A DNA stretch of 64,000 nt from Candidatus Uhrbacteria bacterium GW2011_GWE2_46_68 (GTDB lineage Bacteria > Patescibacteriota > Patescibacteriia > UBA9934 > GWF2-40-263), in NCBI GenBank assembly GCA_001002765.1, contig LCMS01000005.1:2562-66561 (forward strand), read 5' to 3'. The position numbers and the translations under genes were made by a program. The notes below the pieces were generated by a model. It was given only the letters and a program-made list of their open reading frames with translations. It had not been told where the DNA came from and made no database searches. Of the stretch, positions 1-64,000 are shown in pieces. Positions within the stretch are counted from its first letter, which is position 1; every line of letters starts with the position of its first letter.

Positions 1-897
1 AAAACACAAAGAACCCAAGAAAAAAGAAATAGATTTGAAGGAAGCCATCGAATATGCCGAAGCGCATTATCATCTCAAAGAGCAATATGATTCCCAAGTC
101 GAGTTTCTTGAGGACGTGGGGATTTTAGAAAGCGGAGCCATCCCAGGCATAGATGGTAACACCTATCCCATTCCCACTTTGGAACAAATCGCCATGCGTC
201 TGTTTGAACGCCGTGAGACTCTCCACACCAAACACGATCAAGGCTTTACTAAACTCCTCCTTGTTCCCTTTAGGATCACCCATCCTTTGATCTTAATACT
301 GATCATCCTCTCTTTGCATGGGAAGACTATCAAGGAGGAGATATGGGGGATTTCCCAAACCTTGTCTATTATCCACAGTCTTTTGATCTGAAAGAGCATC
401 AAGGAAAGACAAAAATACAGATTCTTAAAGCCAACGAGCGGTTCCCCGGTTGGACTGTTCATCTTCTCCAGCCCTCTGACCCAACAGATTCACATTCTCT
501 AGGTTTTGCTTCTATTCCTCGAAAAGGAGAAGGAACAACCCACGGAAAAAGAATTCCTCGTCCTTCTTTGGAAGTAAATAAAACTCTTAATGAACATCTT
601 TCTACTCTCCAGAAATCCAAAGATGATCCAGACTCTCCTTACTTTCAGGAATTCGGATTAACTCCTGAAGATTGGATTTTGGCTTTTATGATCCATCTTA
701 AGGAAACAGAACAACCCATGGATGATTGGACAAACGGCAGGGAAAGCATGACAGGTCTCATTGGATCTTTTTTTCAATCTGTTGTTTTTGTACCTTGTGC
801 ATCTTGGTATAAAGAGGGTCTTCAGGTGGATTTGCGTATAAATGGTTCTCGTGGCCGGGATAAACGCATTGGTGTGCGATCTTCGGTGATTATTTGA
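1..897 (+). pseudogene. Frameshifted, window-truncated copy of the ~440-aa paralogous family (see 58418..59740). ORFs 35..391 and 343..897 are in different frames and together align to one family member; a ~60-bp deletion after the conserved GFTKLLLVPF segment causes the shift.
   Basis: Translation of 35..391 matches the central family segment (YAEAHYHLKEQYDSQVEFLEDVGILESGAIPGIDGNTYPIPTLEQIAMRLFERRETLHTKHDQGFTKLLLVPF). Translation of 343..897 matches the C-terminal half (NLVYYPQSF, GWTVHLLQPSDP, SPYFQEFGLTPEDWILAFMIHL, RSSVII). Frame switch and stop seen directly in the sequence. Confidence 0.55.
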
Positions 898-21956: not shown

Positions 21957-22013
21957 GAACGAAACCTTTCGGTGCTCTGCCGAGATTTTCAGCAGTGCGC
22001 AGAAAGGGGCGAG
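21957..22013 (-). promoter_or_regulatory. Copy B of the conserved intergenic stem-loop element
   Basis: See copy A; the inner hairpin here is CTGA...TCGG, with a G-U wobble replacing the CCGA/TCGG pairing. Confidence 0.6.
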
Positions 22014-22034
22014 GACGTATTCCTCACCCTTGAT

Positions 22035-24674: not shown

Positions 24675-24713
24675 GAAAGACCTCGAGGTTAGGTTGTTGA
24701 GAGGAGTTGTAAA

Positions 24714-24771
24714 GAACAAAACCTTTCGGTGCACTTCCGAGTTTCCTCGGCAGCGCGCAGAAAGGGCGATG
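24714..24771 (-). promoter_or_regulatory. Copy C of the conserved intergenic stem-loop element (inner hairpin CCGAG-GAAA-CTCGG)
   Basis: See copy A. Confidence 0.6.
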
Positions 24772-25404
24772 TTAGCGTGACATCGCCGTGTGACCATCAA
24801 GCCCCATCAGGTTCAAGATAGCCAACGCTTTTGAGTAATCCGTAACCCCGGTTATTTGGACAGCTCGATTTTCATGCATTCTGACCTCGAGATGAGAACC
24901 GGAAAGATCATCCATACAGTACCGGTCGGTCAAAAGGTGAATCCTTTGGTTACCCGATCCTCGCAGAGGAAGACCTTCAGTGTGGTGACGGATTTGGAAC
25001 GGACCGTCGATCAACACATCAATATGTTGGAGCAGATTTTGTGTTCCCCTTGATGCACGTCGTCCTTCCAGGCGTCTGCGTGTATATCCTGACCAAGCCA
25101 AGGTGGATAGACCAAGGATGTGAACAGCCTCGCAGAGTTCGGACAAGACAATCGCCTGATCAAACGGTTCACCGCCGGAAATGCTGATCCCTTCAATTCC
25201 GTATTCTTCTTTGGCCTTTCGGATTTTTTGCAACATTCGCCACAGAGCGATATCAGCTTTTGGATCTTGATCCAGGTAGAAGGGGGAGATGCATCCCGGG
25301 CAGCGAATCCTGCAGCCACGCACCCATAGGCAGGCCCGAAGGCCCGGTCCCATGGCACGCGTTGCCGGTTCGAAGTGCCCAAGATTGATCGTCTTTTTTC
25401 CCAT
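24772..25404 (-). CDS. nrdG: Anaerobic ribonucleotide reductase activating protein-like radical-SAM enzyme (NrdG family)
   Basis: GPGLRACLWVRGCRIRCPGC (CxxxCxxC), GISISGGEP, WSGYT, VLIDGPF, LRGSGNQ are collinear with E. coli NrdG motifs; no nrdD is visible in the window. Confidence 0.75.
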   Translation of the reverse strand: MGKKTINLGHFEPATRAMGPGLRACLWVRGCRIRCPGCISPFYLDQDPKADIALWRMLQKIRKAKEEYGIEGISISGGEPFDQAIVLSELCEAVHILGLSTLAWSGYTRRRLEGRRASRGTQNLLQHIDVLIDGPFQIRHHTEGLPLRGSGNQRIHLLTDRYCMDDLSGSHLEVRMHENRAVQITGVTDYSKALAILNLMGLDGHTAMSR

Positions 25405-25409
25405 GGCGT

Positions 25410-25625
25410 CTAGTTCTTTGCTCGGGCAGGAGCGTTTGGAATCGCCTGCGGGATTCCGGGGTCTTCGGAGCGTTCGTCCATCTCTTCGATGCCGGCGCCT
25501 AAAAGATCCAAGATGACCTTCATTCGTTCTGCGACTGCACGGCAGCCGGGACCAGGAGGGATGTCCACATCCACATTGCTTCGACCGCTTTTGGGATCAA
25601 TGATGACCGTGATGCGGCGGCTCAT
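25410..25625 (-). CDS. Small hypothetical protein (71 aa) with strong GGAGG Shine-Dalgarno; stop-start coupled to the upstream 172-aa ORF (TGA-n-ATG); ends 5 nt before nrdG
   Basis: ORF 25410..25664 trimmed to the internal Met with the best RBS; function unknown. Confidence 0.4.
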   Translation of the reverse strand: MSRRITVIIDPKSGRSNVDVDIPPGPGCRAVAERMKVILDLLGAGIEEMDERSEDPGIPQAIPNAPARAKN

Positions 25626-25626
25626 A

Positions 25627-26145
25627 TCAGACCTCCTCACGCAGATTGGTGGAGAGGATGACAAGGCCGTTACTGGTCGTTTGCTCGGTTGGCGTTCCGC
25701 CGATCAGTTGGAGCATGGCCTTGTACGCTTCGATTCGGTAGGCATCTTCCAATACCTTGGTCATTTGCTCGAGCTTGTGTGATCCTCTTTCCATTGCGTA
25801 TCCGTTCCAAAACAGAAGCAAAGTTGTTCCATCAAGCGCAACACCCAGTTGAACATCTCCTGATTGGAGCACACCTACACAAGTTCCATTGGGAGGGGCG
25901 CCACTTGCTGTCTGATAACTGGTGCTGTTGTCGTGGGAATCCTTGATTCTGCAGTTGTTGATCTTTGCTGCCGCTCGAGCGATGGCGCGCTTGGCCACTT
26001 CTTTTCGGATTGTCGACCAGTTGAGTCCTCGCAATTGACGTGCGAGCGCAGGGTCGGTCCTTTCAAGTTTCCTAAGTACATCATCCACACTGTCGCCTTG
26101 ATGCGAGAGCGTTTTTTGATGAAGTACATTCCAGTGTTGGCTCAT
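25627..26145 (-). CDS. Hypothetical protein (172 aa), first gene of the GC-rich minus-strand cluster; GGAGG RBS
   Basis: Intact ORF with protein-like composition; no recognisable motif. Confidence 0.45.
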   Translation of the reverse strand: MSQHWNVLHQKTLSHQGDSVDDVLRKLERTDPALARQLRGLNWSTIRKEVAKRAIARAAAKINNCRIKDSHDNSTSYQTASGAPPNGTCVGVLQSGDVQLGVALDGTTLLLFWNGYAMERGSHKLEQMTKVLEDAYRIEAYKAMLQLIGGTPTEQTTSNGLVILSTNLREEV

Positions 26146-51946: not shown

Positions 51947-53239
51947 TTAAATCATCACCGACGAGCGCATGCCATTGTTCCCATCCTGACTACGAGGATC
52001 GTTCCCGCCGAGGAGAGTCTGATGATCGTTATGGAACCAATACGCTCTTGGCACATGAATGGGAGAAAGAAAAAAAGCTCCTATGAGGTAAGAGATGCTC
52101 TCCATGCCATTTGCAACGTTATCCAGTGGTTTTCCTGTTTCTATAAGATGAATCATAAAGGCTATGATCCAATCTTCAGGAGTAAGCCCTGTTTCACCAT
52201 GATAGGGGGAGTTTTCATCTTTTTTGGAAGATTGAAGGAAAGAAAGATACTCAATGGGAGATTGACCTGCTTCAAGAGAAGGTCGAGGGACGAGGTCTCC
52301 TTGGGGTATTCCTCGGCCTTCTCTGGGAATGGAAGCAAAGCCTTTGGGAGTTTCTATGTTTTGTTCATCTGGGTTTGAAGGTTGGAGAAGATGAACAGTC
52401 CAACCAGGAAAAGAATCTTGATTGTCTTCTTGTTCTTTGAGTATCTGTGCCTTTGTCTTCCCCCCATGACCTTTTGTTGTAAAAGACTGTGGATAATAGA
52501 CAAGATTTGGAGAATCCCCCACATCTGCTCCTTGATATCCTGACCATACCCAAAGAGGTTCGTGCGTATAAAGATAAAAGGAAGGATTATTCTTCTTATA
52601 ATCGATAAGAAACTGTTTGAATGTTTCTCGGAGGCTATCAAGGCTCATGCCAAAGGGAACAAGAAGAAGTTTGGTAAAGCCTTGGTCGTGTTTAGTCTCG
52701 AGAGTCTCACGACGTTCAAACAGACGCATGGCGATTTGTTCCAAGGTGGGGATGGGATAAATCTTTCCATCTATGCCCAAGATAACTCCTTCTTTGAGGA
52801 TGCCTACTTGTTCAAGAAGGGAGACTTGAGAAGTGTATTGCTCACGAAGATTGTAAAGACGTTCAGCTTCTTGAAAATATTCGGGGAGTTTTTCTTCTTT
52901 TGGTTCCCCATTCTTAAGTAGATATTCAAAGCGTTCGAGAAGGAGAGCGAGTCGTTCAAGATCTGGGATGGAGAGTTTACAGGTCGCCTCACGCAGGAGG
53001 TCGGGCTTGCCAAGAGATTCTCTGGAAATCTCATGAGCTTTTGTAAAATCAATGATCTCTTGTCGCAGAGTTTCAAAATGCGCGCGATATTGTTCGGGCA
53101 AAGAATCACGGACACTTGAAACAGAATCCATGACGGCTTCGTGGAGAGTAGCGGATAAAGGAGGTTCAGAAGACAGAGTCCCCCTTCGTCCCGCCGTTGG
53201 CGGGACTTCGGGCCGTTTGAGAAAATTACAAGGAAGCAT
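51947..53239 (-). CDS. Member of the ~440-aa paralogous family (copy 2); lacks the GRWTPAFAGVAGGKGLGTPG insertion; its start overlaps the htpX stop; 12 nt upstream of clpC
   Basis: Collinear with 58418..59740 (LHEAVMDSVSSVRDSLPEQYRAHFETLRQEIIDFTKAH ... GFTKLLLVPFGMSLD ... NLVYYPQSF ... GWTVHLLQPSNP ... SPYHGETGLTPEDWIIAFMIHL ... RSSVMI). Confidence 0.75.
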   Translation of the reverse strand: MLPCNFLKRPEVPPTAGRRGTLSSEPPLSATLHEAVMDSVSSVRDSLPEQYRAHFETLRQEIIDFTKAHEISRESLGKPDLLREATCKLSIPDLERLALLLERFEYLLKNGEPKEEKLPEYFQEAERLYNLREQYTSQVSLLEQVGILKEGVILGIDGKIYPIPTLEQIAMRLFERRETLETKHDQGFTKLLLVPFGMSLDSLRETFKQFLIDYKKNNPSFYLYTHEPLWVWSGYQGADVGDSPNLVYYPQSFTTKGHGGKTKAQILKEQEDNQDSFPGWTVHLLQPSNPDEQNIETPKGFASIPREGRGIPQGDLVPRPSLEAGQSPIEYLSFLQSSKKDENSPYHGETGLTPEDWIIAFMIHLIETGKPLDNVANGMESISYLIGAFFLSPIHVPRAYWFHNDHQTLLGGNDPRSQDGNNGMRSSVMI

Positions 53240-54116
53240 CCATATGACGCAGGCGTTCGATACGTTTTTCAATCGGAGGATGAGTGCTGAACAAATGTTC
53301 AAATCGTTTGGTCACAAAAGGATCAAAGGGATTGGCAAGAAACAGATGAGCGGTTGCATGATTGGCTTTTTGTAAAGGGCGATCTTGAGTGGCGATTTTT
53401 TCCAAGGCTTGTGCCAGACCCTCCGGGTAACGTGTGAGAAGAGCGGCGGAAGCATCGGCCAGATATTCTCGTTTGCGACTGATCGCCAGTTTAATGAGCT
53501 CGGCAATCAAAGGAGAGAGGAGCGCCAGGACAATCCCAATGAGAAAAATCCAAACCGCGTTTTGTCCCTCTTGCCGTCTTCCACCAAAAAGATTTCCACG
53601 CAAAAGAATATCGGATAAAAGAAGAATGGCGCCGACCATAACAACAACCAAGGTCATGAAACGAATATCATAATTTTTAATATGAGAAAGTTCATGAGCC
53701 AAAACTCCTTCGAGTTCTTGTTTATCAAGAAGTTTGAGAAGGCCGGTGGTGACGGCAATCGCCGCATGGGCAGGATCGCGACCTGTGGCAAAGGCATTTC
53801 CCGCTTCATCGGGAATGATATAGATCGCAGGAGTGGCAAGGCCGCTTCCAATCGCCAGATTTTCCACCAAGCGATACAGCTCGGGCGCATCGGATTTTTG
53901 AATGGGTTTTGCCCCTGATGTCATGAGTGCCACTTTGTCTCCACTAAAATAACCGATCAATACAAGAATCGTCGCAAGGAGAGCGGCAAGGATAATGCCT
54001 CCTTCCGGAGATTCAAAAGCCGCTCCGAGCACCCAGCCCAGAGCGACCAAAAGAGTGGTACAGATAATGATAAGCAACCAAGAATCTCGTTTGTTGCGGG
54101 CAATGTCGGCGTACAT
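53226..54116 (-). CDS. htpX: Zinc metalloprotease HtpX (peptidase M48)
   Basis: 296 aa; HELSHIKNYD HExxH motif; TM topology. Confidence 0.9.
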   Translation of the reverse strand: MYADIARNKRDSWLLIIICTTLLVALGWVLGAAFESPEGGIILAALLATILVLIGYFSGDKVALMTSGAKPIQKSDAPELYRLVENLAIGSGLATPAIYIIPDEAGNAFATGRDPAHAAIAVTTGLLKLLDKQELEGVLAHELSHIKNYDIRFMTLVVVMVGAILLLSDILLRGNLFGGRRQEGQNAVWIFLIGIVLALLSPLIAELIKLAISRKREYLADASAALLTRYPEGLAQALEKIATQDRPLQKANHATAHLFLANPFDPFVTKRFEHLFSTHPPIEKRIERLRHMDASL

Positions 54117-54119
54117 GCA

Positions 54120-54671
54120 CTAGAACGTTACCTTTGGCGTTTGCTCAGCCTCGGAGGGGGCATCAAAGAATTCCTTTTTTTGAAAACCAAATGGGCCGGC
54201 AATCACATTGTTTGGAAAAGATTGCAAAGCCGTGTTGTAATCACGCGTCATGCCATTATAGAAGCGGCGAGACGCTTGGATTTTATCTTCGGCATCAGTG
54301 AGTTCTTGTTGGAGGTGCAAAAAATTTCCTGCGGCTTGGAGGGAAGGATAATTTTCCGCAACCGCAAAAAGAGATTTCAAGGATTGGGTGAGCATGTTTT
54401 CCGCTTGTGCATGATCGGTCATGGTTTGCGCATTCATGGCTGCGCTGCGTGCTTGAGTGACCTTGGTAAAAACAGAATCTTCATGCATAGCGTACGCCTT
54501 CACAGACTGCACAAGATTGGGAATAAGGTCATAGCGGCGCTTGAGTTGCACTTCGATATCGGACCACGCTTCTTCCACACGATTCCGCAGACGAATGAAA
54601 CGATTGTATGTTACAATAAGCCAACCGCACAGGATCACAAGCACGATCACGATCGCATAGATAATTTCCAT
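54120..54671 (-). CDS. lemA: LemA family protein
   Basis: 183 aa; N-terminal TM; conserved LemA core (RRYDLIPNLV ... ENYPSLQA). Confidence 0.88.
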   Translation of the reverse strand: MEIIYAIVIVLVILCGWLIVTYNRFIRLRNRVEEAWSDIEVQLKRRYDLIPNLVQSVKAYAMHEDSVFTKVTQARSAAMNAQTMTDHAQAENMLTQSLKSLFAVAENYPSLQAAGNFLHLQQELTDAEDKIQASRRFYNGMTRDYNTALQSFPNNVIAGPFGFQKKEFFDAPSEAEQTPKVTF

Positions 54672-54744
54672 AAAATAACGAAGAAAATTAGAGATTTTTC
54701 ACCTAAAATGGTACGGGATTTTCCCTTGAGCGTCAATCAAAATT

Positions 54745-56103
54745 ATGCAAGTTTCCCATGCGATTTTTAAGGCCTATGATATTCGTGGATTGGTAGGAAG
54801 TGAGATCACTCCAGAGTTGGCATATCATTTGGGTCGCGCGTACGTCACTTTTTTACGTGAACAATATTCCGACGAATCTCTTTCTGTTGTGGCAGGCCAT
54901 GATATGCGTCCTTCTTCTTTGGAATTGCAATCCGAACTCATCCGCGGTTTTGTGGATGGAGGCGCGCATGTTTTGGATATTGGTCTTGTTTCCACACCGG
55001 TTTTTTATTTTAGTGTGGGACATTTGAAAGCTCATGGAGGAATCACCGTGACAGCTTCTCATAACCCCGTCACATACAATGGATTTAAGTGCGTGCGGGA
55101 CATGGCGATTCCTGTGGGAGGAGACAGTGGATTTGCTCGTATCATTGAGTTGATCGAGTCCGAAGTCTATACACAGGGGGAGGGGAGTGTAGAAAAAATT
55201 TCCAATATCACAACCGTAGCGGTGGAGGCGCATAAGGCATTTGCCGGGGAAGGGGAGATACGACCCATGAAAATTGTGGCTGATCCCGGAAACGGCATGG
55301 GAGCCCAATATCTGGATGCGCTTTTCTCTCTTTTGCCTGTGGACGTTGTGCGTTTGTATTGGGATTTGGATGGCGCGTTTCCCAATCATGAATCCAATCC
55401 TCTCAAAGAAGAAACACTTAAAGATCTTCAAGCAAAAGTTGTGGCGGAAAAAGCTGATCTCGGTATTGCCACCGATGGGGATGGGGATCGCATCTTTTTT
55501 GTGGATGAAACAGGGAAAACCGTGGAGCCGGCGATCATTCGAGGAATACTGTCTCAAGTAATGTTGCGGCGTTTTCCTGGCGCTACGATTTGTTATGACG
55601 TGCGTCCGGGAAAAATCACTGAGGATATGATTGTGGAGGCAGGGGGCAAACCTTCGCGCACACCAGTGGGTCACTCCCTTATCAAAGCTCAAATGCGTCG
55701 AGAAGGAGCGGTGTTTGGTGGAGAATCTTCCGGTCACTTTTATTATAACTTTCCAACCGGGACATATGATGGGCCTGTCACATCTATTGTGCAGATTTTG
55801 CAAGAGATCACGCGGGCAGGGAAACCGTTTTCACAAATTGTCGCGCCTTTGCATCGTTACGCACATTCCGGAGAAATAAATTATCATGTGGAGGAGAAGA
55901 TCACGGCACTCGATCGGCTCAAAGCACAGTATGGAGATGGTAAACAAGACACACTCGATGGTCTAACCGTCACTTACCCCACCTATTGGTTTAATGTGCG
56001 ATCTTCAAATACCGAATCTCTTTTGCGACTCAATCTTGAAGCTATAGATCGATCTACCATGGAGACTAAGCGCGACGAAGTCGCCGCCATCATTCAACAA
56101 TAA
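54745..56103 (+). CDS. Phosphoglucomutase/phosphomannomutase (alpha-D-phosphohexomutase family)
   Basis: 452 aa; active-site TASHNP; four-domain architecture. Confidence 0.85.
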   Translation: MQVSHAIFKAYDIRGLVGSEITPELAYHLGRAYVTFLREQYSDESLSVVAGHDMRPSSLELQSELIRGFVDGGAHVLDIGLVSTPVFYFSVGHLKAHGGITVTASHNPVTYNGFKCVRDMAIPVGGDSGFARIIELIESEVYTQGEGSVEKISNITTVAVEAHKAFAGEGEIRPMKIVADPGNGMGAQYLDALFSLLPVDVVRLYWDLDGAFPNHESNPLKEETLKDLQAKVVAEKADLGIATDGDGDRIFFVDETGKTVEPAIIRGILSQVMLRRFPGATICYDVRPGKITEDMIVEAGGKPSRTPVGHSLIKAQMRREGAVFGGESSGHFYYNFPTGTYDGPVTSIVQILQEITRAGKPFSQIVAPLHRYAHSGEINYHVEEKITALDRLKAQYGDGKQDTLDGLTVTYPTYWFNVRSSNTESLLRLNLEAIDRSTMETKRDEVAAIIQQ

Positions 56104-56110
56104 TAATCGT

Positions 56111-57331
56111 ATGCCCATCATCACTGACCAAGAAAGAATCCATCATCTTTTAACACGAGGGGTGGAACACGTCTATCCTTCACGAGAGTTTTTGGAGGCA
56201 CGACTCAAAGAAGGAAAGCCGCTCACGCTTTACCTCGGCATTGATCCCACAGGACCCAATCTGCATATGGGGCATGCAATCGTGCTTCGCAAGATGCGCG
56301 AGTTTCAAGAGCTTGGGCACAAACTCATTTTGCTCATAGGGGATTTTACCGGCATGATCGGAGACCCTACGGATAAATCCGCTACGCGTGTACGATTGAC
56401 GCGGGAACAAGTTTTGGAAAACGCGAAAAATTATCAAGCGCAAGCATCCAAGCTTATTCTTCTTGAAGGAGAAAATGCCGCTGAGGTGAAATATAACAGC
56501 ACATGGCTTGGACAAATGACTTTTACTGATGTTGTAGAATTGGCTTCTCATTTTACTGTACAGCAATTACTCGAGCGCGATATGTTTCAAAAGCGTATGG
56601 AAGAGGGGCGCCCCATTCATTTGCATGAGTTCCTCTATCCCACTATGCAAGGCTATGACTGTGTAGCTATGAATGTGGACGGGGAAATCGGCGGAAATGA
56701 TCAGACGTTTAATATGCTCGCCGGTCGGGATTTGATGAAAGATTTGAAAGGACGGGAAAAGTTTGTGGTGACGATGAAATTACTCGTGGATCCAACCGGT
56801 AAAAAAATGGGCAAGAGCGAGGGAAACATGATTTGTCTTTGCGATAGTGCGGACGACATGTTTGGGAAGGTTATGAGTTGGACCGATGGCATGATTGTTC
56901 CCGGGTTTGAGCTCTGCACTTTTGAAACAGATAAGGAAATCCAGTCGATTGCCGTTCAACTTAAAGAAGGCATCAATCCGCGTGATCTTAAAGCGCAATT
57001 GGGACGCAAGGTCGCGGAGATTTATCACGGGGCAGAGGCGGCGCAAGCGGCATCTGATTGTTTTGACCAACTGTTTCGCGAGCACCAATCTCCCCGGGAG
57101 ATGCCGATCTTTGTCATCAATGGAGAGATGAATATCGTAGATCTTTTGGTGGCAAGCAAATCCGTTTCGTCAAAAACCGAAGCGCGCAGGCTTATTGATG
57201 GCAAAGGCATCAAGGTGGGGGATCGTGTGGTGGAAACATACGAGGAAACGGTCAACCCCACCAAAGAAGGAGTCATTCTTCAAAAAGGCAAACGTCATTT
57301 TGTCAAAATAGTTTTAACCCAAACCACATGA
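56111..57331 (+). CDS. tyrS: Tyrosyl-tRNA synthetase
   Basis: 406 aa; HMGH (HIGH), KMGKS (KMSKS), C-terminal S4 domain. Confidence 0.88.
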   Translation: MPIITDQERIHHLLTRGVEHVYPSREFLEARLKEGKPLTLYLGIDPTGPNLHMGHAIVLRKMREFQELGHKLILLIGDFTGMIGDPTDKSATRVRLTREQVLENAKNYQAQASKLILLEGENAAEVKYNSTWLGQMTFTDVVELASHFTVQQLLERDMFQKRMEEGRPIHLHEFLYPTMQGYDCVAMNVDGEIGGNDQTFNMLAGRDLMKDLKGREKFVVTMKLLVDPTGKKMGKSEGNMICLCDSADDMFGKVMSWTDGMIVPGFELCTFETDKEIQSIAVQLKEGINPRDLKAQLGRKVAEIYHGAEAAQAASDCFDQLFREHQSPREMPIFVINGEMNIVDLLVASKSVSSKTEARRLIDGKGIKVGDRVVETYEETVNPTKEGVILQKGKRHFVKIVLTQTT

Positions 57332-58416
57332 TTTGGACCATCATTCTTTTTATTGCGCTTCTTTCCCTTTTGGTTTTTGTCCATGAGCTCGGTCATTTTT
57401 GCGTAGCAAGACGCATGGGCATGAAGGTGGAGGAATTCGGATTTGGATTTCCTCCTCGGCTGTTTGGTATTCGTCCAAAACCTGAAGGAACGATTTACTC
57501 CATTAACTGTATTCCGATCGGCGGGTTTGTGCGCATTAAAGGGGAAGGAGGAGGAGAGACACAAGAGCCGGATAGTTTTGCTTCCAAAGCCGTGTGGAAA
57601 CGTTTTCTTGTTTTAGTGGCCGGTGTTGCCATGAACATCGCCCTTGCCGCGTTTTTGTTTATCATGGGATTTACTTTTGGGATTCCTTCCGTGATCACAG
57701 ATGATGTTCCTGCCTCGGCGCATATCATAGATGAGAAGATTCAGGTTTATTCCGTTTTATCTCAAAGTCCGGCCGAGATGGCAGGGATGGTACCAGGGGA
57801 CATTTTAATTTCGGTTGACGGTCAGGTTTTCGCCGAGTCCGAGGAGGTGCGCAATTATATTCAAACTCATGGAGACGAGGGGATTTTGATGACATGGAAG
57901 CAGACAAGCGGAGAGATAAAAACCGTAGCTATAACCGCAGCTGATCTTACTGAAATGGATTTTCATGGACTGGGAGTGGGGTTTGTGAAAACCGGTCTTG
58001 TTTCCTATCCTATTCATAAAGCGATTGTTCAAGGAATGGTTGCGACGGCAGCGTTAACATGGGATATCACAAAAGCGTTTGGGCAGATCATTAAAGATGT
58101 GGTGATTCATCAAAAAGTGGAAGCCGAACTTTCTGGACCTGTGGGGATTGCGGTGATGACCGGAGAGGTGGCGCAGATGGGATGGACATATTTGATTCAT
58201 TTTGCGGCCGTGCTTTCTTTGAATCTTGCCGTTATCAATATTTTGCCTTTCCCCGCGCTTGATGGAGGGCATGTAGTTTTTCTTTTGGTTGAAAAAATAC
58301 GTCGTAAGCCTGTGGGAGAATCCCTTCGTTCGCTCGCGAATAATCTCGGGTTTGCTTTTTTGATTATTCTTGCGGTCATCGTGACCTATCGTGATGTGAT
58401 CAACTTCGGAGCGTGA
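57328..58416 (+). CDS. rseP: RIP zinc metalloprotease RseP (site-2 protease, M50) with PDZ domain
   Basis: HELGHF, PDZ segment, LNLAVINILPFPALDGGHV motif. Confidence 0.88.
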   Translation: MIWTIILFIALLSLLVFVHELGHFCVARRMGMKVEEFGFGFPPRLFGIRPKPEGTIYSINCIPIGGFVRIKGEGGGETQEPDSFASKAVWKRFLVLVAGVAMNIALAAFLFIMGFTFGIPSVITDDVPASAHIIDEKIQVYSVLSQSPAEMAGMVPGDILISVDGQVFAESEEVRNYIQTHGDEGILMTWKQTSGEIKTVAITAADLTEMDFHGLGVGFVKTGLVSYPIHKAIVQGMVATAALTWDITKAFGQIIKDVVIHQKVEAELSGPVGIAVMTGEVAQMGWTYLIHFAAVLSLNLAVINILPFPALDGGHVVFLLVEKIRRKPVGESLRSLANNLGFAFLIILAVIVTYRDVINFGA

Positions 58417-58417
58417 T

Positions 58418-59740
58418 ATGTCTCTTTTTCGATCAAGTTTGGAATCCATCCCCTCTGCCACCCCCACGGAGGTGGGGGTCCAGCGCACTTCAGCAAATCT
58501 CCACGAAGCCATCATGGATTCGGTTTCAAGTGTTCGTGATTCTTTGCCCGAACAATATCGCGCACATTTTGAAACTTTGCGACAAGAGATTATTGATTTT
58601 ACAAAAGCTCATGGGATTTCCAGAGAATCTCTTGGCAAGCCCGACCTTCTGCGCGAGGCGACCAGCAAACTTTCCACTTCAGATCTTGAACGACTCGCTC
58701 TCCTTCTTGAGCGTTTTGAATATCTGCTTAAGAATGGGGAACCAAAAGAAGAAAAACTCCCCGAATATTTTCAAGAAGCTGAGCGTCTTTACAATCTTCG
58801 TGAGCAATACACTTCTCAAGTTTCCTTTCTTGAACAGTCTGGCATTCTCAAAGAAGGAGCTATCTTAGGCATAGATGGAAAGATTTATCCCATCCCCACC
58901 TTGGAACAAATCGCCATGCGTCTCTTTGAACGCCGTGAGACTCTCGAGACTAAACACGACCAAGGCTTTACCAAACTTCTTCTTGTTCCCTTTGGCATGA
59001 GCCTTGATAGCCTCCGAGAAACCCTCAAACAATTTCTCATCAAACATAAAGAGTTCCACTCCTCTTTTGATCTTAATGATCACCAACCTCTCTTGGCATG
59101 GTCAGAATATTACGGAGCAGACATAGGGAATTCTCCAAAGCTTGTTTATTATCCACAGTCTTTTACAAAAAAAGGTCATGGGGGGAAGACCAAGATGGAG
59201 ATACTTAAGGAACAAGCCAAAGGACGATGGACCCCTGCCTTTGCAGGGGTGGCAGGAGAGAAGGGATTGAGAACCCCCGGTTGGACGGTTCATCTTCTCC
59301 AACCTTCTAATCCTTCCAATCCACATTCCCCAGGCTTTGCTCCCATTCCCAGACAAGGCCAAGGAACACCCCAAGGAGACCTCATCCTTCGTCATCCTCT
59401 TGAAGCAAACAAAACCCCTATTGAATATCTTTCCATTCTTCAAAAAGCTCAAGAGGATGAAGACTCTCCCTATCATGGTGAAACAGGTATGACTCCCGAA
59501 GATTGGATCATGGCCTTTATGATTCACCTCACAGAAACAGGAAAACCTTTGGATAACTGGGAAAACGGGGGAGAAAGCAGGTCTTATCTTACAGGAGCTT
59601 TTTTTTCTTTCTCCATCTCCATCCTTGTGCCGGGCGCGGGCTGGAGCTGTGACAGTCGTCAGGTTCGCCTCGGATTGGGCGGTCATCGCTCTTCGCTGCA
59701 CGCCATGTTCAATGGAGTGCGGTCTTCGGTGGTGGTTTAA
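58418..59740 (+). CDS. Paralogous family protein, copy 3 (440 aa), function unknown
   Basis: Reference member; shares 50-80% identity blocks with copies at 1-897, 51947-53239, 60936-62252, 62265-63599. Confidence 0.8.
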   Translation: MSLFRSSLESIPSATPTEVGVQRTSANLHEAIMDSVSSVRDSLPEQYRAHFETLRQEIIDFTKAHGISRESLGKPDLLREATSKLSTSDLERLALLLERFEYLLKNGEPKEEKLPEYFQEAERLYNLREQYTSQVSFLEQSGILKEGAILGIDGKIYPIPTLEQIAMRLFERRETLETKHDQGFTKLLLVPFGMSLDSLRETLKQFLIKHKEFHSSFDLNDHQPLLAWSEYYGADIGNSPKLVYYPQSFTKKGHGGKTKMEILKEQAKGRWTPAFAGVAGEKGLRTPGWTVHLLQPSNPSNPHSPGFAPIPRQGQGTPQGDLILRHPLEANKTPIEYLSILQKAQEDEDSPYHGETGMTPEDWIMAFMIHLTETGKPLDNWENGGESRSYLTGAFFSFSISILVPGAGWSCDSRQVRLGLGGHRSSLHAMFNGVRSSVVV

Positions 59741-59841
59741 AACTACTCATTACCAAATCCTCGGATTGTCGATCAATATAAAACTCGCTAGACTGAAGGA
59801 GGTTTAGGAGATCATATTTTCATCAATAGAATCGATTATGT

Positions 59842-60897
59842 ATGCAAGAAACATTCACACAACTCATTGAACAATGCAAAGACGCGCTCAAAGCGGTGAG
59901 AGATCGGGCGGCATTGGAAGCGGTCGAGATAAAATTTTTAGGTCGTAAGGGTGAACTAGCTTCTCTTATGAAGCAACTTGCAACTCTTTCGGACGAAGAA
60001 AAGAAAATCGCCGGCAAAGTCGCCAATGAGACAAAAGAAAAAATAGAGCAGATGATCGCAAAGGCAAAAGAGAAAATCGCGCGTGAAGAAGAAAAGACGC
60101 GTGCCGATCGGGAATGGGTCGATGTGACCGCTCCGGGAGTGTTTCCCAATGAAGGGCATCTTCATCCTATAAGCCAAGCGATTCAGGAGATCACCGATGT
60201 GTTTGCACAAATCGGTTTTGTTTCCGTGCGCGCGCCCGAGATTGATTGGGACTGGTATGTGTTCGAGTCTCTCAATATGCCACCCGATCATCCTGCCCGC
60301 GATGATTGGGAAACGTTTTTTATCGCAGAGACCAAAGGACAAAAGGCGCGTGGAGAAAAAGGACGTTTAGTGCTGACTCCGCATACATCCAATGCCCAAG
60401 TGCGCGAAATGGAAAAAGGGAAGTTACCGATCCGCATGATCAATATCAATCGTACATATCGCCGACAATCCGATCCTTCCCATACTCCCATGTTCCATCA
60501 GTTTGAGGGATTGGTGATTGATGAAGGGATCACGATCGCGCATCTTAAAGGCGTGCTCGATTATTTTGCAAAATCTTTTTTTGGACCCGATCGTCAGATT
60601 CGTTTGCGTCCACATCATTTTCGATTCACCGAGCCGAGTTTTGAAGTGGATATTTCTTGCGGGGCGTGTGGAGGGAAAGGAGCGTGCCGCATCTGTAAAG
60701 CTGGGTGGTTGGAGCTTGGAGGAGCAGGGATGGTACACCCCAATGTGCTCAAGGCCGGGGGATTAGATCCGGAAAAAGTGTCCGGCTTTGCGTTTGGATG
60801 GGGAGTGGAGCGGACCTTGGTTATGAAAGAGGGAACAAAGATCGATGACATCCGCATTTTGTACAAGAACGACTTACGATTTATCAAACAGTTCTAA
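59842..60897 (+). CDS. pheS: Phenylalanyl-tRNA synthetase alpha subunit
   Basis: 351 aa; class II motifs (FRFTEPSFEVD, GWLELGGAGMVHP, FGWGVERT). Confidence 0.9.
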   Translation: MQETFTQLIEQCKDALKAVRDRAALEAVEIKFLGRKGELASLMKQLATLSDEEKKIAGKVANETKEKIEQMIAKAKEKIAREEEKTRADREWVDVTAPGVFPNEGHLHPISQAIQEITDVFAQIGFVSVRAPEIDWDWYVFESLNMPPDHPARDDWETFFIAETKGQKARGEKGRLVLTPHTSNAQVREMEKGKLPIRMININRTYRRQSDPSHTPMFHQFEGLVIDEGITIAHLKGVLDYFAKSFFGPDRQIRLRPHHFRFTEPSFEVDISCGACGGKGACRICKAGWLELGGAGMVHPNVLKAGGLDPEKVSGFAFGWGVERTLVMKEGTKIDDIRILYKNDLRFIKQF

Positions 60898-60935
60898 TAT
60901 CGATGAGAGGATTTTAGATACCATACTGTATTTTT

Positions 60936-62252
60936 ATGTCTCTTTTTCGACCAAGTTTAGAATCCTCTCCGTCTGCCACCCCTGCAGAAGCAGGGGCCCA
61001 GCGCACTTCAGCAAATCTCCACGAAGCCATCATGGATTCGGTTTCAAGTGTCCGTGATTCTTTGCCTGAACAATATCGCGTACATTTTGAAACTTTGCGA
61101 CAAGAGATTATTGATTTTACAAAAGCTCACGGGATTTCCAAAGACGCACTTTCCAATCCCAGCCTCCTTCGCGAGGTGACCTGTAAACTCTCCACTTCAG
61201 ACCTTGAACGACTCGCTCTCCTTCTTGAACGCTTTGAATATCTACTTAAGAATGGGGAACCGAAAAAAGAAGACTATACCGAAACCCTTGAGTATGCCGA
61301 AGAGTTTTATCATCTTCGTGAGCAATACACTTCTCAATTCAACCTTCTTAAAGAAGCGGGAATACTTAAAGAAGGAGTCATCCTAGGTATAGACGGTAAC
61401 ACCTATCCCATTCCCACCTTGGAACAAATCGCTTCTCGTCTCTTTGAACGCCGTGAGACTCTCGAGACTAAACACGACCAAGGCTTTACCAAACTTCTTC
61501 TTGTTCCCTTTGGCATGAGCCTTGATACTCTCCGAAAAACCCTCAAACAATTCCTTCTCAAGTACAAAAAAGATAATCCCTCCTTTGATCTCGATACCGA
61601 TGATCCTGTCTATGCATGGTCAAGCTATCAAGGAGCAGACATTGGGGATTCTCCAAACCTTGTTTATCACCCCAAGTCTTTTGACAAGGATGGACATGGA
61701 GGAAAGACAAAGACGCAGATACTCAAAGAACAAATAGAAGGACGATGGACCCCTGCCTTTGCAGGGGTGGCAGGAGGGAAGGGATTGGGAACCCCAGGTT
61801 GGACGGTTCACCTTCTCCAGCCTTCTGATCCTTCCAATTCACATTCCCTGGGCTTTGCTTCCATTCCCCGTGAAGGCCAAGGAACATCTCAAGGAGACGA
61901 GAACCCCCGCCCACCTTTTGAGGCAGGTAAAACCCCCAATGAATATCTTTCCATTCTTCAAAATGCTCAAAGCGATAAAGACTCTCCCTATCATGGTGAA
62001 ACAGGCATGACTCCCGAAGATTGGATCACAGCTTTTATGATTCATCTTTCGGAAACAGGAAAACCTCTTGATGATGTATGGAACCCCACAAACAAAGAAA
62101 GCATCTCTTACCTCACAGGAGCTTTTTTTCAATCCTGCATCGATGTGCCTTGCGTGTCTTGGCGCCGTGGTTCTCGTCTGGCTGACCTCTACGGGTCTGG
62201 TCCTCATGCTCGGGGTGAGAACTTTGGTTTGCTGTCTTCGGTGGTGGTTTAA
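60936..62252 (+). CDS. Paralogous family protein, copy 4 (438 aa)
   Basis: See copy 3; the first ~95 nt are identical to copy 5. Confidence 0.8.
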   Translation: MSLFRPSLESSPSATPAEAGAQRTSANLHEAIMDSVSSVRDSLPEQYRVHFETLRQEIIDFTKAHGISKDALSNPSLLREVTCKLSTSDLERLALLLERFEYLLKNGEPKKEDYTETLEYAEEFYHLREQYTSQFNLLKEAGILKEGVILGIDGNTYPIPTLEQIASRLFERRETLETKHDQGFTKLLLVPFGMSLDTLRKTLKQFLLKYKKDNPSFDLDTDDPVYAWSSYQGADIGDSPNLVYHPKSFDKDGHGGKTKTQILKEQIEGRWTPAFAGVAGGKGLGTPGWTVHLLQPSDPSNSHSLGFASIPREGQGTSQGDENPRPPFEAGKTPNEYLSILQNAQSDKDSPYHGETGMTPEDWITAFMIHLSETGKPLDDVWNPTNKESISYLTGAFFQSCIDVPCVSWRRGSRLADLYGSGPHARGENFGLLSSVVV

Positions 62253-62264
62253 CCTTTGATGTCT

Positions 62265-63599
62265 ATGTCTCTTTTTCGACCAAGTTTAGAATCCTCTCCG
62301 TCTGCCACCCCTGCAGAAGCAGGGGCCCAGCGCACTTCAGCAAATCTCCACGAAGCCATGATGGATTCGGTTTCAAGCGTTCGTGATTCTTTGCCTGAAC
62401 AATATCACGCACACTTTGAAACTCTGCGACAAGAGATTATTGATTTCACAAAAGTTCATGGGATTCCAAAAGAATCCCTTACCAAGCCCGACCTTCTGCG
62501 CGAGGTGACCTGCAAACTCTCCACTTCAGACCTTGAACGACTCGCCATTCTTCTCGAACGCTTTGAATATCTGCTTAAGAATGGGGAACCAAAGAAAGAA
62601 GAGATAGACCCTGCCAAAGCCATTGAGTATGTAGAGGAGCATTATCATCTTCGTAAACAATACGATTTTCAAGTAGAGCTTCTTGAGGAAGTAGGCATCC
62701 TCAAAGAAGGAGCGATCACGGGTATAAATGGTCATGATTATCCCGTTCCAACCCTCGAACAAATTGCCGTCCGTCTCTTTGAACGCCGCGAAGAACTTTC
62801 CACTAAACACGACCAAGGCTTTACCAAACTCCTCCTTGTTCCCTTTGGTATGAGCCTTGATACTCTCCAAGAAACCATCAAACAATTCCTTCTTAAGTAC
62901 AAGAAGGATCACCCATCTTTTGATCTCAATACCGATAACCCCCTCTGGGCATGGTCAAGCTATCAAGGAGCAGACACGGGGGATTCTCCAAACCTTGTCT
63001 ATTATCCACAGTCTTTTGATGAAAAGGATCATCAAGGAAAGACCAAGATGGAGATACTCAAAGAACAAACAGAAGGACGATGGACCCCTGCCTTTGCAGG
63101 GGTGGCAGGAGGGAAGGGATTGGGAACCCCAGGTTGGACCATTCATCTTCTCCAACCATCAAACCCGAACGAACAAGACATTGAAACTCCAAAAGGCTTT
63201 GCTCCCATTCCCCGACAAGGTAAAGGAAAACCACATCCCTCCCTTCGCGAAGGGAGGGACCGCCCTCCTCTTGAAGCAGGACAATCTTCCAATGAATATC
63301 TTTCCATTCTTCAAAAAGCTCAAGGTGATAAAGACTCTCCCTATTATGGTGAAACAGGCATGACTCCTGAAGACTGGATCATAGCCTTTATGATTCATCT
63401 TTCTGAAACAGGGAAGCCATTAGACAACTATGCAGATGGCACAGAAAGCATCCCCTACTTCACAGGATCTTTTTTCTCTTCCTCCACCTTTGTGCCTTTC
63501 GCGTATTGGCGCCGTGGCGATCGGCGGGTTTACTTCGGCGGGAGTGATCCTCGTGGTCGGGATGTGAACATTGGGGTGCGGTCTTCGGTGGTGGTTTAG
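62265..63599 (+). CDS. Paralogous family protein, copy 5 (start at the homologous MSLFRP; the ORF opens at 62256 with TTG)
   Basis: See copy 3. Confidence 0.8.
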   Translation: MSLFRPSLESSPSATPAEAGAQRTSANLHEAMMDSVSSVRDSLPEQYHAHFETLRQEIIDFTKVHGIPKESLTKPDLLREVTCKLSTSDLERLAILLERFEYLLKNGEPKKEEIDPAKAIEYVEEHYHLRKQYDFQVELLEEVGILKEGAITGINGHDYPVPTLEQIAVRLFERREELSTKHDQGFTKLLLVPFGMSLDTLQETIKQFLLKYKKDHPSFDLNTDNPLWAWSSYQGADTGDSPNLVYYPQSFDEKDHQGKTKMEILKEQTEGRWTPAFAGVAGGKGLGTPGWTIHLLQPSNPNEQDIETPKGFAPIPRQGKGKPHPSLREGRDRPPLEAGQSSNEYLSILQKAQGDKDSPYYGETGMTPEDWIIAFMIHLSETGKPLDNYADGTESIPYFTGSFFSSSTFVPFAYWRRGDRRVYFGGSDPRGRDVNIGVRSSVVV

Positions 63600-63758
63600 T
63601 CCTTGTCCTTTAATCTTTGTCCTTTTTTTATTCTTTATCTTTATCCTTCATCGTATAGTGTCTGGCTGTCATATGTGTGATGACTGATCACACATCAGGA
63701 AAAGATTTTTATCAGCGAATAGTCACCCGATTCAAGTCGGGCTGCCGAGCAATACCAA

Positions 63759-63822
63759 CCATCTTTCCCGCCTAAGGCGACGACGACGCAGCGTCGTCGT
63801 CGCGGCGCGATGGTTGGTATGA
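63759..63822. repeat. Nested perfect palindrome: outer ATACCAACCATC/GATGGTTGGTAT and inner CGACGACGACGC/GCGTCGTCGTCG
   Basis: Seen directly; lies in a ~400-nt non-coding stretch after copy 5. Confidence 0.6.
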
Positions 63823-63942
63823 AGCTTCAAGAACCACCACGAATCAAAAACGTCTCCCCAAAGCGAATGGGTAAACGTGTCTATGGACACATATTGTAAG
63901 GTTGCGACTTTACAAGACTACGGAAAGACGTTTTTGAAACAA

Positions 63943-64000
63943 TTCTCCACCAATGTGCCTTACGCGTATTGGAACCGTGACAATCGGCAGGTTAACTTCA
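63943..64000 (+). pseudogene. C-terminal remnant of a further family copy (FSTNVPYAYWNRDNRQVNF ~ FVPFAYWRRGDRRVYF), with no upstream body; truncated by the window end
   Basis: Translated similarity to the C-termini of copies 3-5; preceded by unrelated sequence. Confidence 0.35.

Follow-up and report, generated by a model that had tools for sequence, protein, structure and literature searches.

A family of ~440-residue hypothetical proteins in Candidatus Uhrbacteria as the very probable targets of a diversity-generating retroelement with an out-of-frame reverse transcriptase

The 64,000-nt stretch of Candidatus Uhrbacteria bacterium GW2011_GWE2_46_68 DNA analyzed here (the window) carries five copies of a gene for a ~440-aa protein, four of them intact and one broken, which together occupy about 6.2 kb, or 9.6% of the window (Table 1). 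The open reading frames predicted for the intact copies are real, and every conserved sequence block quoted in the original prediction was found in the copies. Pairwise identity among the intact copies is 67 to 74% (tblastn), with protein sequences 26 to 33% different; copy 2 is an exact match to KKU41235.1/UX57_C0005G0065. The frameshift reported for copy 1, which is cut at the window edge, was also observed: positions 2 to 280 are read in frame 2 and align with amino acids 105 to 197, and positions 274 to 894 are read in frame 1 and align with amino acids 215 to 444 (tblastn), with ~17 residues missing around the GMSLD helix. Copy 1 is probably a pseudogene. As had been noted, the 20-aa insertion GRWTPAFAGVAGGKGLGTPG is present in copies 3 to 5 and not in copies 1 and 2; it appears as a low-confidence loop in the structure model. 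The expected lack of a signal peptide or transmembrane (TM) segment also held, since the maximum Kyte-Doolittle mean over 19 residues was only 0.75 to 1.37 and no hydrophobic segment was present. The copies had no Pfam or NCBIfam match, and all database members of the family are named “hypothetical,” none of them with a Pfam domain.

Table 1. Features of the family and of the adjoining cassette (window coordinates).
Feature	Position	Strand	Description
Copy 1	1..897	+	5′ end lost at window edge; internal deletion and frameshift near 274–280
Copy 2	51947..53239	−	430 aa; ORF open to 53302; without the 20-aa loop; VR ~51948–52066, weakly adenine-biased
Copy 3	58418..59740	+	440 aa; VR ~59606–59739, adenine-biased, drifted, with small insertion
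Copy 4	60936..62252	+	438 aa; VR ~62133–62251, adenine-biased, drifted from cassette TR
Copy 5 (DGR variable protein)	62265..63599	+	444 aa; alternative starts 62256 and 62259; adjacent, cleanly matching target
VR of copy 5	63480..63598	+	Codons 406–444; 3′ end is IMH-like GTGCGGTCTTCGGTGGTGGTTTA
Spacer between copy 5 and TR	63600..63942	+	Structured RNA
Conserved RNA motif of CPR-type DGR cassettes	63707..63755	+	49 nt, two helices: outer 6-bp stem, GAAWAGYCAC, inner 7-bp hairpin
TR, 5′ half	63943..64000	+	Extends to window-equivalent ~64061 (L001 10895–11013); encodes Asn-rich FSTNVPYAYWNRDNRQVNFNRNDPRDRDENIGVRSSVKV

The original prediction spoke of seven loci in its title and listed six. 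Five of those listed are family genes; the sixth, taken for a C-terminal gene remnant, was misread and is the 5′ part of the template repeat (TR) of a diversity-generating retroelement (DGR). This supposed remnant was the key clue to the DGR. Half of the TR is inside the window; its other half, avd, and the reverse transcriptase (RT) gene were read from contig L001, whose sequence coincides exactly with that of the window from 53211 to the end. The cassette consists, in order, of copy 5 with its variable repeat (VR), a structured spacer, the TR, a minus-strand avd, the RT gene, and pheT. The Avd protein matched NF033474 (DivGenRetAVD; E = 2.7e-12, 46.9 bits, under the 80-bit equivalog cut-off) and, over its full length, PF22296 (bAvd; E = 4.4e-8). 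The RT gene is split by a frameshift; its halves matched RVT_1 positions 7 to 97 and 118 to 204. Once repaired, the 329-aa RT aligned end to end with CPR RTs of 310 to 335 aa and kept GIPIGNVTSQIFANIYL, YLRYGDDF, and the motifs IGNxTSQ and YGDD. All of its relatives are CPR RTs (45 to 57% identity), and they adjoin clean TR/VR pairs. The order VR, RNA motif, TR, avd (minus strand), and RT is common to about 29 loci. At one of the compared loci (L008), an Avd 65% identical is found at the corresponding position, and the target is a 768-aa family member fused to an AAA_5 domain. Family members also lie beside intact RTs at L017, with two clean targets (23/32 and 22/32 adenines changed; 1/86 other bases), and at L018, with one (21/32 adenines; 1/82 other bases).

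No ORF with similarity to the family was found in the spacer, whose RNA is structured (MFE of −110.5 kcal/mol versus −83.0 ± 4.7 for shuffled sequences; z = −5.8). The conserved motif within it was the sole CM hit in 157 kb (58.3 bits, E = 1.9e-15). It is found at 53 RT loci, every time on the RT strand and about 640 to 700 nt upstream of the RT, and was unmatched in Rfam. Its helices are supported by covariation: 94.7% of cells are paired, compared to at most 54% in slid registers, and double-sided changes occur in 11 of the 13 pairs.

The TR and the VR of copy 5 align without gaps over 119 nt. Eighteen of the 29 TR adenines are changed in the VR, as against 2 of the 90 other bases (Fisher P = 5.7e-12). 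A remote copy, L014:2140–3474, gave a similar result (15/29 adenines; 1/90 other bases), and these two are the only VRs that match the TR cleanly at non-adenine positions. In both, a 25-nt segment, CATTGGGGTGCGGTCTTCGGTG, is identical to the TR and is followed by GTGGTTTA in the VR and AAGGTTCA in the TR. The shared segment and the point of divergence are, as sequences, consistent with an IMH/IMH* pair; no conserved or GC-rich hairpin was found directly after the VR. The IMH-like 3′ end of copy 3 is the same as that of copy 5. The adenine bias is also seen in copy 4 (21/29 adenines and 13/90 other bases changed, P = 1.1e-8), copy 3 (22/29 and 19/90, P = 1.7e-7), and copy 2 (14/29 and 22/90, P = 0.016); in copy 1, the counts are 18/29 and 32/90. 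When 19 copies were pooled, 61% of adenine sites and 26% of non-adenine sites differed from the TR. For most paralogue VRs, 13 to 54% of non-adenine sites differ from the cassette TR, so that these VRs are not being overwritten by it.

The TR adenines are located at codon positions 1, 2, and 3 in 11, 16, and 1 cases, respectively. They make 19 codons variable, with a capacity of about 10^15.8 possible peptides, and the AAG codon at the end, where the IMH* boundary lies, is the only one that can give a stop. Across 64 family members, the entropy of a column rises with how many adenines stand at positions 1 and 2 of the TR codon, being 0.97 bits for none, 2.50 for one, and 2.93 for two (Spearman rho = 0.85, P = 6e-12); the remainder of the protein averages 0.84 bits. 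The variability described in the original prediction is thus real, but it is not a single mosaic or polymorphic pattern, as it has two separate causes: adenine-directed hypervariability over the last ~40 residues, and paralogue mosaicism with gene conversion elsewhere in the protein. Overall, these results make it very probable that the ~440-aa proteins are variable proteins, i.e., targets, of a CPR-type DGR. An expanded, mosaic, cytoplasmic-looking family was therefore correctly recognized, but its unrecognizable novelty does not stand; clear homology to a characterized family, which would speak against such novelty, was found in part. The “polymorphic” C terminus is accounted for by the retroelement rather than by ordinary divergence.

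The structure model predicts a disordered N terminus, a helical domain (~28 to 142), an alpha/beta middle part, and a C-terminal FGE-type C-type-lectin (CLec) fold whose last ~40 residues carry the VR. The resemblance to FGE in the model is at the fold level only: neither the whole proteins nor their C-terminal 100 aa matched Pfam FGE-sulfatase (PF03781), even at E ≤ 10, and profile searches against PDB sequences gave no match. There is no AAA domain in the window's copies; AAA_5 is present in distant homologues of the same core (P0174, P0186, P0223, P0236, and P0247). The lack of a signal peptide or TM segment and the fusion of the core to a MoxR/dynein-type AAA_5 ATPase in these distant relatives suggest that the proteins are likely cytoplasmic ligand-binding sensors or adaptors.

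By analogy with the established mechanism of the Bordetella phage BPP-1 DGR, RT-Avd would copy the TR RNA into cDNA, misincorporating nucleotides at random opposite adenines. This cDNA would replace a VR, guided by the identical IMH-like 3′ segment and by upstream homology, so that up to 19 codons on the binding face of the lectin fold could be rewritten (about 10^16 peptides) and the scaffold spared. The VRs of copy 5 and of the remote L014 copy may be the most recent products of such homing; the others would represent an older imprint of adenine mutagenesis with subsequent drift.

The RT reading frame is lost in a poly-G tract, which is G11 in four assemblies and G10 in the fifth and in the fragment P0287; there are 0 other differences between these alleles in 2523 nt. 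A simple repeat (SSR) is present at the corresponding site in 22 of 64 related RT genes, an enrichment over background with P of about 1e-38. Twelve of these 22 genes are in frame and 10 are shifted, compared to none shifted of the 42 genes without a repeat (Fisher P = 4e-6). All 10 shifted genes are otherwise intact, with both halves open, and offsets of both +1 and +2 occur. The repeats, which include poly-G, (GA)n, (CA)n, (CT)n, and (CAGA)n, fall in a fixed loop just before GIPIGN. The RT gene thus has the properties of an SSR phase-variable locus, i.e., an intragenic repeat of variable length that sets the reading frame of an otherwise intact ORF. We infer that the RT of the window's element is not decaying but has been set to OFF by a repeat-length switch. 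In the window lineage, every tract seen was of an OFF length (G10 or G11) and none of an ON length, and no other near-identical RT pairs with differing tract length were found. We tentatively propose, as a reading that falls somewhat short of probable, that the CPR DGR RT is a contingency gene through which targeted hypermutation is switched ON and OFF in the DNA itself by an SSR, that the window's element is OFF, with a repertoire of at least 19 cytoplasmic lectin-fold receptors held fixed until the tract slips to G9 or G12 and re-arms it, and that the 49-nt motif is an essential cis element of CPR-type DGR RNA.

It is possible, though unlikely, that the element is instead a dead fossil, with an RT inactivated by the frameshift, a family that now evolves only by duplication, gene conversion, and point mutation, and an adenine imprint that is historical. 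None of the five assemblies has the RT in frame, an intact near-identical RT is absent among ~15 billion proteins, and most VRs have drifted from the TR. No diversification of VRs between assemblies was seen, as they are identical in all near-identical database members, although these are consensus sequences in which minority variants are invisible. Over half of the candidate DGRs in the main survey were dropped as inactivated (Wu et al., PMC5758913). However, the fossil reading has to be set against an RT whose two halves are fully open with all catalytic motifs intact, a tract that is the only lesion and itself varies in length, the recurrence of the repeat at the same site in divergent RTs, and the near absence of non-adenine drift in two VRs.

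Another way to avoid a DNA-level switch is to suppose that the RT is made despite the frameshift, constitutively and at a low level, through slippage during transcription or programmed ribosomal frameshifting on the G-run or (GA)n repeat. Transcriptional slippage is known to occur at long homopolymers, the downstream ORFs stay intact in out-of-frame alleles, and both offsets are seen. We consider this improbable, as (GA)n, (CT)n, and (CAGA)n are typical DNA-slippage tracts and not ribosomal slippery sites, and in-frame alleles are no rarer than shifted ones.

The genome contains at least 19 paralogues, in tandem arrays amid housekeeping genes. Gene conversion among them is evident from blocks of 97 to 100% nucleotide identity alternating with blocks of 31 to 61%; the VR of copy 4 is preserved in P0001 and P0002 despite differences in other blocks, and chimeric database proteins exist, such as P0028, which joins copies 4 and 3. 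Conversion and chimeras would also be expected if the copies were ordinary fast-evolving paralogues under positive selection, with 63943–64000 a decayed gene fragment, yet this is effectively refuted: differences concentrate on the adenines of the “fragment,” which is rich in Asn codons with A at positions 1 and 2 and adjoins avd and the RT, and about 29 other loci are arranged alike, with mismatches cleanly confined to A. No more credible is an assembly artefact (collapsed or duplicated repeats, chimeric contigs), for although L001 1–162, a contig end inside copy 2, is wholly unlike the window and, with the P0028 chimera, indicates that metagenome assemblers do break or mis-join at paralogues, the copies differ in sequence and each has a distinct VR, L001 reproduces the 10.8-kb stretch 53211–64000 exactly, L001 to L004 (NCBI, JGI, and two ENA assemblies) share an identical cassette, and four more independent assemblies carry the locus without a single base difference.

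With the targets of a CPR-type DGR as the preferred reading, ~10% of the window and at least 19 “hypothetical” genes become interpretable as a retroelement-diversified, lectin-fold binding repertoire in a symbiont genome of the ~1-Mb class, and a predicted fold is assigned to a CPR DGR target class that comprises at least 767 representative clusters. CPR bacteria would then be investing heavily in recognition proteins that are variable and apparently intracellular and that are related to AAA-ATPase-fused sensors. The RNA motif offers a handle on how template RNA is assembled by CPR-type cassettes, in which avd is inverted between TR and RT. If true, the repeat-length switch in the RT would add a new level to the regulation of targeted hypermutation, and surveys that drop frameshifted RTs would under-count functional DGRs. 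The pattern is unreported in the literature searched, possibly because frameshifted DGRs were discarded in the survey (PMC5758913).

The closest known systems are the DGRs of CPR/Patescibacteria (Paul et al. 2017, Nat Microbiol; the “CPR set” with B3 architecture of Wu et al. 2018, PMC5758913). Shared features are a groundwater CPR host, a target whose VR is C-terminal and which lacks TM segments and recognizable domains, a lack typical of CPR DGR targets (PMC8144416), and an order and orientation of avd and TR unlike those of the Bordetella phage cassette. Distant family members combine an AAA ATPase with a C-terminal VR (cf. PMC10907252); CLec fused to an AAA ATPase is the commonest CPR target architecture according to the passage of PMC10907252 that cites Paul et al. 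(2017), and the CPR “UVR” target classes, of unknown fold, include one with Midasin/AAA matches (Wu et al. 2018, PMC5758913). The AAA-fused targets of Paul et al. may correspond to class UVR4 of Wu et al. The window's copies differ from AAA-type targets in having a ~110-aa helical N-domain in place of the ATPase, and the element differs from the surveyed ones in its RT, frameshifted in an SSR, since such loci were discarded (PMC5758913).

Like the BPP-1 DGR (Mtd, Avd, TR, and Brt), the element has adenine-specific changes from TR to VR, an AAY-rich TR that avoids stops, an identical IMH-like 3′ segment, and Avd plus RT. Unlike phage-borne BPP-1, it is cellular, avd is on the opposite strand between TR and RT, and no GC-rich hairpin directly follows the VR. 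Its conserved, structured RNA motif precedes the TR; in BPP-1, the spacer element is located downstream. Treponema denticola TvpA (PDB 2y3c) has the FGE-type CLec fold that the model predicts here, its VR is also C-terminal, and in Treponema, too, one DGR serves several non-adjacent targets, seven in all (PMC5758913). However, TvpA is a surface lipoprotein with 11% sequence identity to the window's proteins, which lack a signal peptide or lipobox, and the Treponema cassette has an HRDC accessory gene (PMC5758913) instead of Avd.

The CLec conflict-system sensors of multicellular bacteria (Kaur et al. 2020, PMC7159879; Dore et al. 2024, PMC10907252) resemble the family in their intracellular, DGR-diversified CLec/FGS domain, association or fusion with a MoxR-type AAA ATPase, multiple targets per genome, and duplication with recombination. 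No vWA, VMAP, NACHT, or effector domains were found in the family. The host differs in its tiny genome and in not being known to be multicellular, and the RT of the window's element belongs to a different clade; CPR RTs are mostly of clade 2 (PMC10907252; Roux et al. 2021, PMC8144416). Finally, the RT gene can be compared to the SSR contingency loci of Neisseria, Haemophilus, Campylobacter, and Helicobacter. The gated gene here is a mutagenic reverse transcriptase rather than a surface antigen or restriction-modification enzyme, and its switching is proposed from sequences that show only OFF lengths in the window lineage; in both cases, a poly-G or dinucleotide repeat lies at a fixed site within the gene, its length differs among otherwise identical sequences, and in-frame and out-of-frame alleles coexist with intact ORF halves.

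The stretch 63943–64000, taken for a C-terminal gene remnant in the original prediction, is instead the start of the template repeat (TR) of a diversity-generating retroelement (DGR) and shows adenine-specific differences from copy 5 of the variable protein family. Its translation, FSTNVPYAYWNRDNRQVNF, is Asn-rich precisely at the positions where the gene copies vary. The full 119-nt TR gives an ungapped alignment with the final 119 nt of copy 5, its variable repeat (VR), in which 18 of 29 adenines and 2 of the 90 remaining bases are changed (Fisher p 5.7e-12). Such adenine-directed change is what defines the TR/VR pair of a DGR. Adenines occupy codon positions 1, 2, and 3 of the TR 11, 16, and 1 times, respectively; the 19 variable codons allow a computed ~10^15.8 peptides, and a stop codon can arise only from the terminal AAG codon, at the IMH* boundary. 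Promoter and terminator sites scanned for around the TR were no more numerous than in shuffled controls.

L001, a contig that overlaps the window and runs past its end, can be read as the continuation of the window since the two are identical from 53211 to the window's end. The sole differences are the first 162 bases of L001 (window 53049–53210), an unrelated contig-end junction inside copy 2. Beyond the TR, L001 carries an accessory gene (avd), a reverse transcriptase (RT) gene, and pheT. As a rule, pheS and pheT are adjacent; since pheS is found here between copies 3 and 4, copies 4 and 5 and the cassette sit inside the pheS-pheT pair. Copy 3 lies directly upstream of pheS, and other family arrays are also wedged among housekeeping genes (e.g., hisS, pgk, rpmE/prfA, and ruvA). 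A separate region of the window, 22001–26000, has a G+C content of 0.52–0.53 versus 0.40–0.48 elsewhere in the window and holds only long, probably spurious ORFs, such as 22035–24800 (minus).

Features of the family copies and the DGR cassette (window coordinates unless L001 is named)
Feature	Position	Strand	Remarks
Copy 1	1–897		Cut by window edge and internally disrupted; frame 2 for 2–280, frame 1 for 274–894, ~17 residues lost
Copy 2	51947–53239	minus	Intact paralogue (ORF listing, tblastn)
Copy 3	58418–59740		Intact paralogue (ORF listing, tblastn)
pheS	59842–60897		Between copies 3 and 4
Copy 4	60936–62252		Intact paralogue (ORF listing, tblastn)
Copy 5	62265–63599		Intact paralogue (ORF listing, tblastn)
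RNA motif	63707–63755	plus	49 nt, two helices
Hairpin	63765–63823		CCAACCATC...GGCGACGACGACGCAGCGTCGTCGTCGC...GATGGTTGG
TR	63943 to window-equivalent ~64061		119 nt
Avd	L001, downstream of TR	minus	114 aa; NCBIfam DivGenRetAVD E 2.7e-12, Pfam bAvd E 4.4e-8
RT	L001, downstream of TR		Split in two ORFs jointly covering the RVT_1 profile
RT G-tract	L001 11888–11898 (window-equivalent 64936–64946)		Beyond the window
pheT	L001 12324–14723		Downstream of TR

Thus, the original prediction saw the family correctly and misread the decisive clue. Its four intact ~440-aa paralogues and its frameshifted first copy were recovered; every conserved block that it quoted was found in the copies, the 20-aa insertion was present in copies 3 to 5 only, and no segment of any copy reaches the hydrophobicity of a signal peptide or transmembrane helix. 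The window copies are 67–74% identical to copy 4 (tblastn), and the family takes up 9.6% of the window, against the ~10% claimed. The view that the family resembles no known one holds for Pfam and NCBIfam, where neither the whole proteins nor their C-terminal fragments produced anything above sub-threshold noise, but the TR/VR signature makes these proteins DGR targets. The exact proteins belong to Candidatus Uhrbacteria GW2011_GWE2_46_68 / GWF2_46_218 (locus tags UX57_C0005G0065 to G0074, all annotated "hypothetical"); no mention of these genome names was found in the literature searched. The cassette region is identical in three further assemblies besides L001, and the copies are therefore not the assembly artefacts that had been considered possible.

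The mosaic pattern described between blocks was evident in sliding-window nucleotide comparisons, where blocks of 97–100% identity alternate with blocks of 31–61% and the partners change. For copies 4 and 5, identity is 100% and 98% across codons 1–40 and drops to 55–61% across codons 301–340, while copies 3 and 2 share 97–100% identity in several blocks. Gene conversion accounts for the pattern outside the VR. Among database proteins, P0001 and P0002 retain the VR of copy 4 and differ in other blocks, and P0028 is a copy 4/copy 3 chimera. Some of these chimeras may be assembly errors; since assemblers break or mis-join at paralogues, as at the L001 junction and in P0001, P0002, and P0028, "variants" of the family in public records should be read with care.

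Adenine-directed diversification has left its imprint on the whole family. In a 64-member alignment, the entropy of columns in the last 39 residues tracks the number of adenines at TR codon positions 1 and 2, averaging 0.97 bits with no adenine, 2.50 with one, and 2.93 with two (Spearman rho 0.85, p 6e-12); outside these residues, the mean is 0.84 bits. At AAY codons of the TR, family members show the expected D/S/R/H/N/G/Y spectrum. Fourteen further copies were found in the same population, at four additional loci, where they form tandem arrays (two to four genes each) flanked by housekeeping genes. No Avd or RT of their own was detected at these four loci, and 93 kb around these other paralogue arrays contained no second DGR cassette. 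The resulting genome-wide copy number (at least 19) is a lower bound, since a scan of genome contigs gave only eight distant loci, the Uhrbacteria genome itself being absent. Of the 19 VRs, two are clean relative to the TR: that of copy 5 and that of a remote target, L014:2140–3474 (15 of 29 adenines and 1 of 90 other bases changed). Over its whole length, the remote protein shares just 72% identity with copy 5 and is therefore not its recent duplicate. Most other VRs show a strong adenine bias over 13–28% non-adenine drift (p 1e-3 to 1e-8), and four are too diverged for a call (Fisher p > 0.05). Between tandem copies lies a conserved spacer of 12 nt (window 62253–62264 and junctions in loci L013, L014, and L015), the order being stop codon, CCTTTGAT(A/G)TNT, and ATG, which implies that the arrays grew through duplication of a fixed unit.

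The spacer between copy 5 and the TR (63600–63942) folds far better than its shuffles (z −5.8). Its alignment with the equivalents in two metagenomic loci, L017 and L018, revealed a conserved two-helix motif between the target VR and the TR (L017:1258–1306; L018:7358–7409). A covariance model built on these three sequences found the motif at 50 other RT loci; in all 53, it lies on the RT strand, and its distance from the RT is nearly constant. In the alignment, which was itself fitted to the model and so calls for caution, 94.7% of motif cells are paired (shuffles, 75.8%; slid registers, ≤54%). Double-sided changes occur in 11 of the 13 pairs, and compensatory cells number 134 versus 40 ± 8 in shuffles. 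The invariance of one G-U pair speaks for an RNA structure and against a DNA cruciform. A single occurrence was found in 157 kb from this organism, and none after the remote target or any other paralogue, which places the motif on the TR side of the cassette. It matches no Rfam 15 family, and within the literature searched, this motif of CPR-type DGR cassettes is unreported. The spacer also contains a separate, near-perfect, long GC-rich hairpin, whose conservation in L017 and L018 is not obvious.

The reading frame of the RT is broken at a run of G residues within a variable loop, directly before GIPIGN; G9 or G12 would restore it. The tract is G11 in four assemblies and G10 in a fifth (L019 1450–1459, with 0 other differences over 2,523 nt), a difference to be read with homopolymer length errors of short-read assemblies in mind. 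The sole near-identical RT database entry, P0287 (12 members), has the G10 reading. No current diversification was seen, the VRs being invariant among near-identical database members and assemblies. Taken alone, an out-of-frame RT and invariant VRs look like a dead fossil, i.e., an inactivated DGR. However, 22 of 64 non-redundant related RT loci (L022–L098) carry a simple sequence repeat (SSR) ≤75 nt upstream of GIPIGN: poly-G of 8–11, (GA)n, (CA)n, or (CT)n, with (CAGA)n additionally in L093. The background repeat density in the same loci (12 per 331 kb) predicts 0.17 such loci (P about 1e-38). Repeat-bearing RTs are in frame in 12 cases and shifted in 10, while all 42 repeat-free RTs are in frame (Fisher p 4e-6). 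Every shifted allele is otherwise open in both halves, with 96–140 codons upstream (136–140 in all but one) and 140–145 downstream, lengths resembling those of in-frame alleles. Since SSRs are enriched at a fixed site and both halves of shifted alleles are open, we lean toward the RT of this element being under a repeat-length ON/OFF switch, presently OFF; a fossil appears unlikely, and RT expression through programmed slippage is improbable. The repeat pattern suggests phase-variable control of DGR activity, and the fixed-site SSR, unreported in RT genes within the literature searched, is together with the RNA motif the most interesting lead. In a paper that mentions both DGRs and phase variation, the latter term denotes surface phase variation of the Bordetella host, not RT control.

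Structure modelling, proposed with the original prediction, was productive, while the accompanying Foldseek search was not. An AF2 model from 64 close homologues was unusable (pLDDT 49), and one from 130 diverse sequences reached pLDDT 91.1 and pTM 0.86; Foldseek found no matches in PDB or BFVD. Single-sequence search of PDB sequences returned only matches with E>0.3. A weak match of the close-family profile to HP0242, a knotted helical protein (residues 76–126, E 6e-4), was treated as helical-repeat noise since the broader profile failed to reproduce it. Profile search of 1.84 billion representatives yielded 767 clusters, most aligning to residues ~115–438 only.

Family members (hmmsearch E 1e-85 to 1e-119) also occur as clean targets beside intact RTs 49–53% identical to the window-adjacent RT. 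L017 has two targets (23/32 and 22/32 adenines changed, versus 1/86 other bases) and L018 has one (21/32 versus 1/82). About 29 metagenomic loci with clean, adenine-only mismatches share a common order: VR, 45–134 nt, RNA motif, ~115–250 nt, TR, avd (minus), and RT. Distant superfamily members carry an N-terminal AAA_5 ATPase. In L008, from a distant Patescibacteria genome (JBBTVX010000002.1; 12256–13623 and 13347–13658) with no RT detected beside its avd, the target upstream of the TR is a 768-aa AAA_5-fused member. The TR there coincides with the 3′ terminus of another complete, family-like ORF that has lost its stop and reads into the antisense avd, which suggests that TRs derive from duplicated target genes. 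By analogy with the AAA-fused relatives and with DGR-diversified sensors in other bacteria, the family may serve as cytoplasmic recognition proteins. DGR targets in CPR (Patescibacteria) hosts mostly have no transmembrane segments or known domains (PMC8144416), and their most frequent architecture is described, in a passage citing Paul et al. 2017, as a C-type lectin fused to an AAA ATPase (PMC10907252). Several CPR VR classes of Wu et al. (UVR1-6) were given no fold there, although one has Midasin/AAA matches (PMC5758913).
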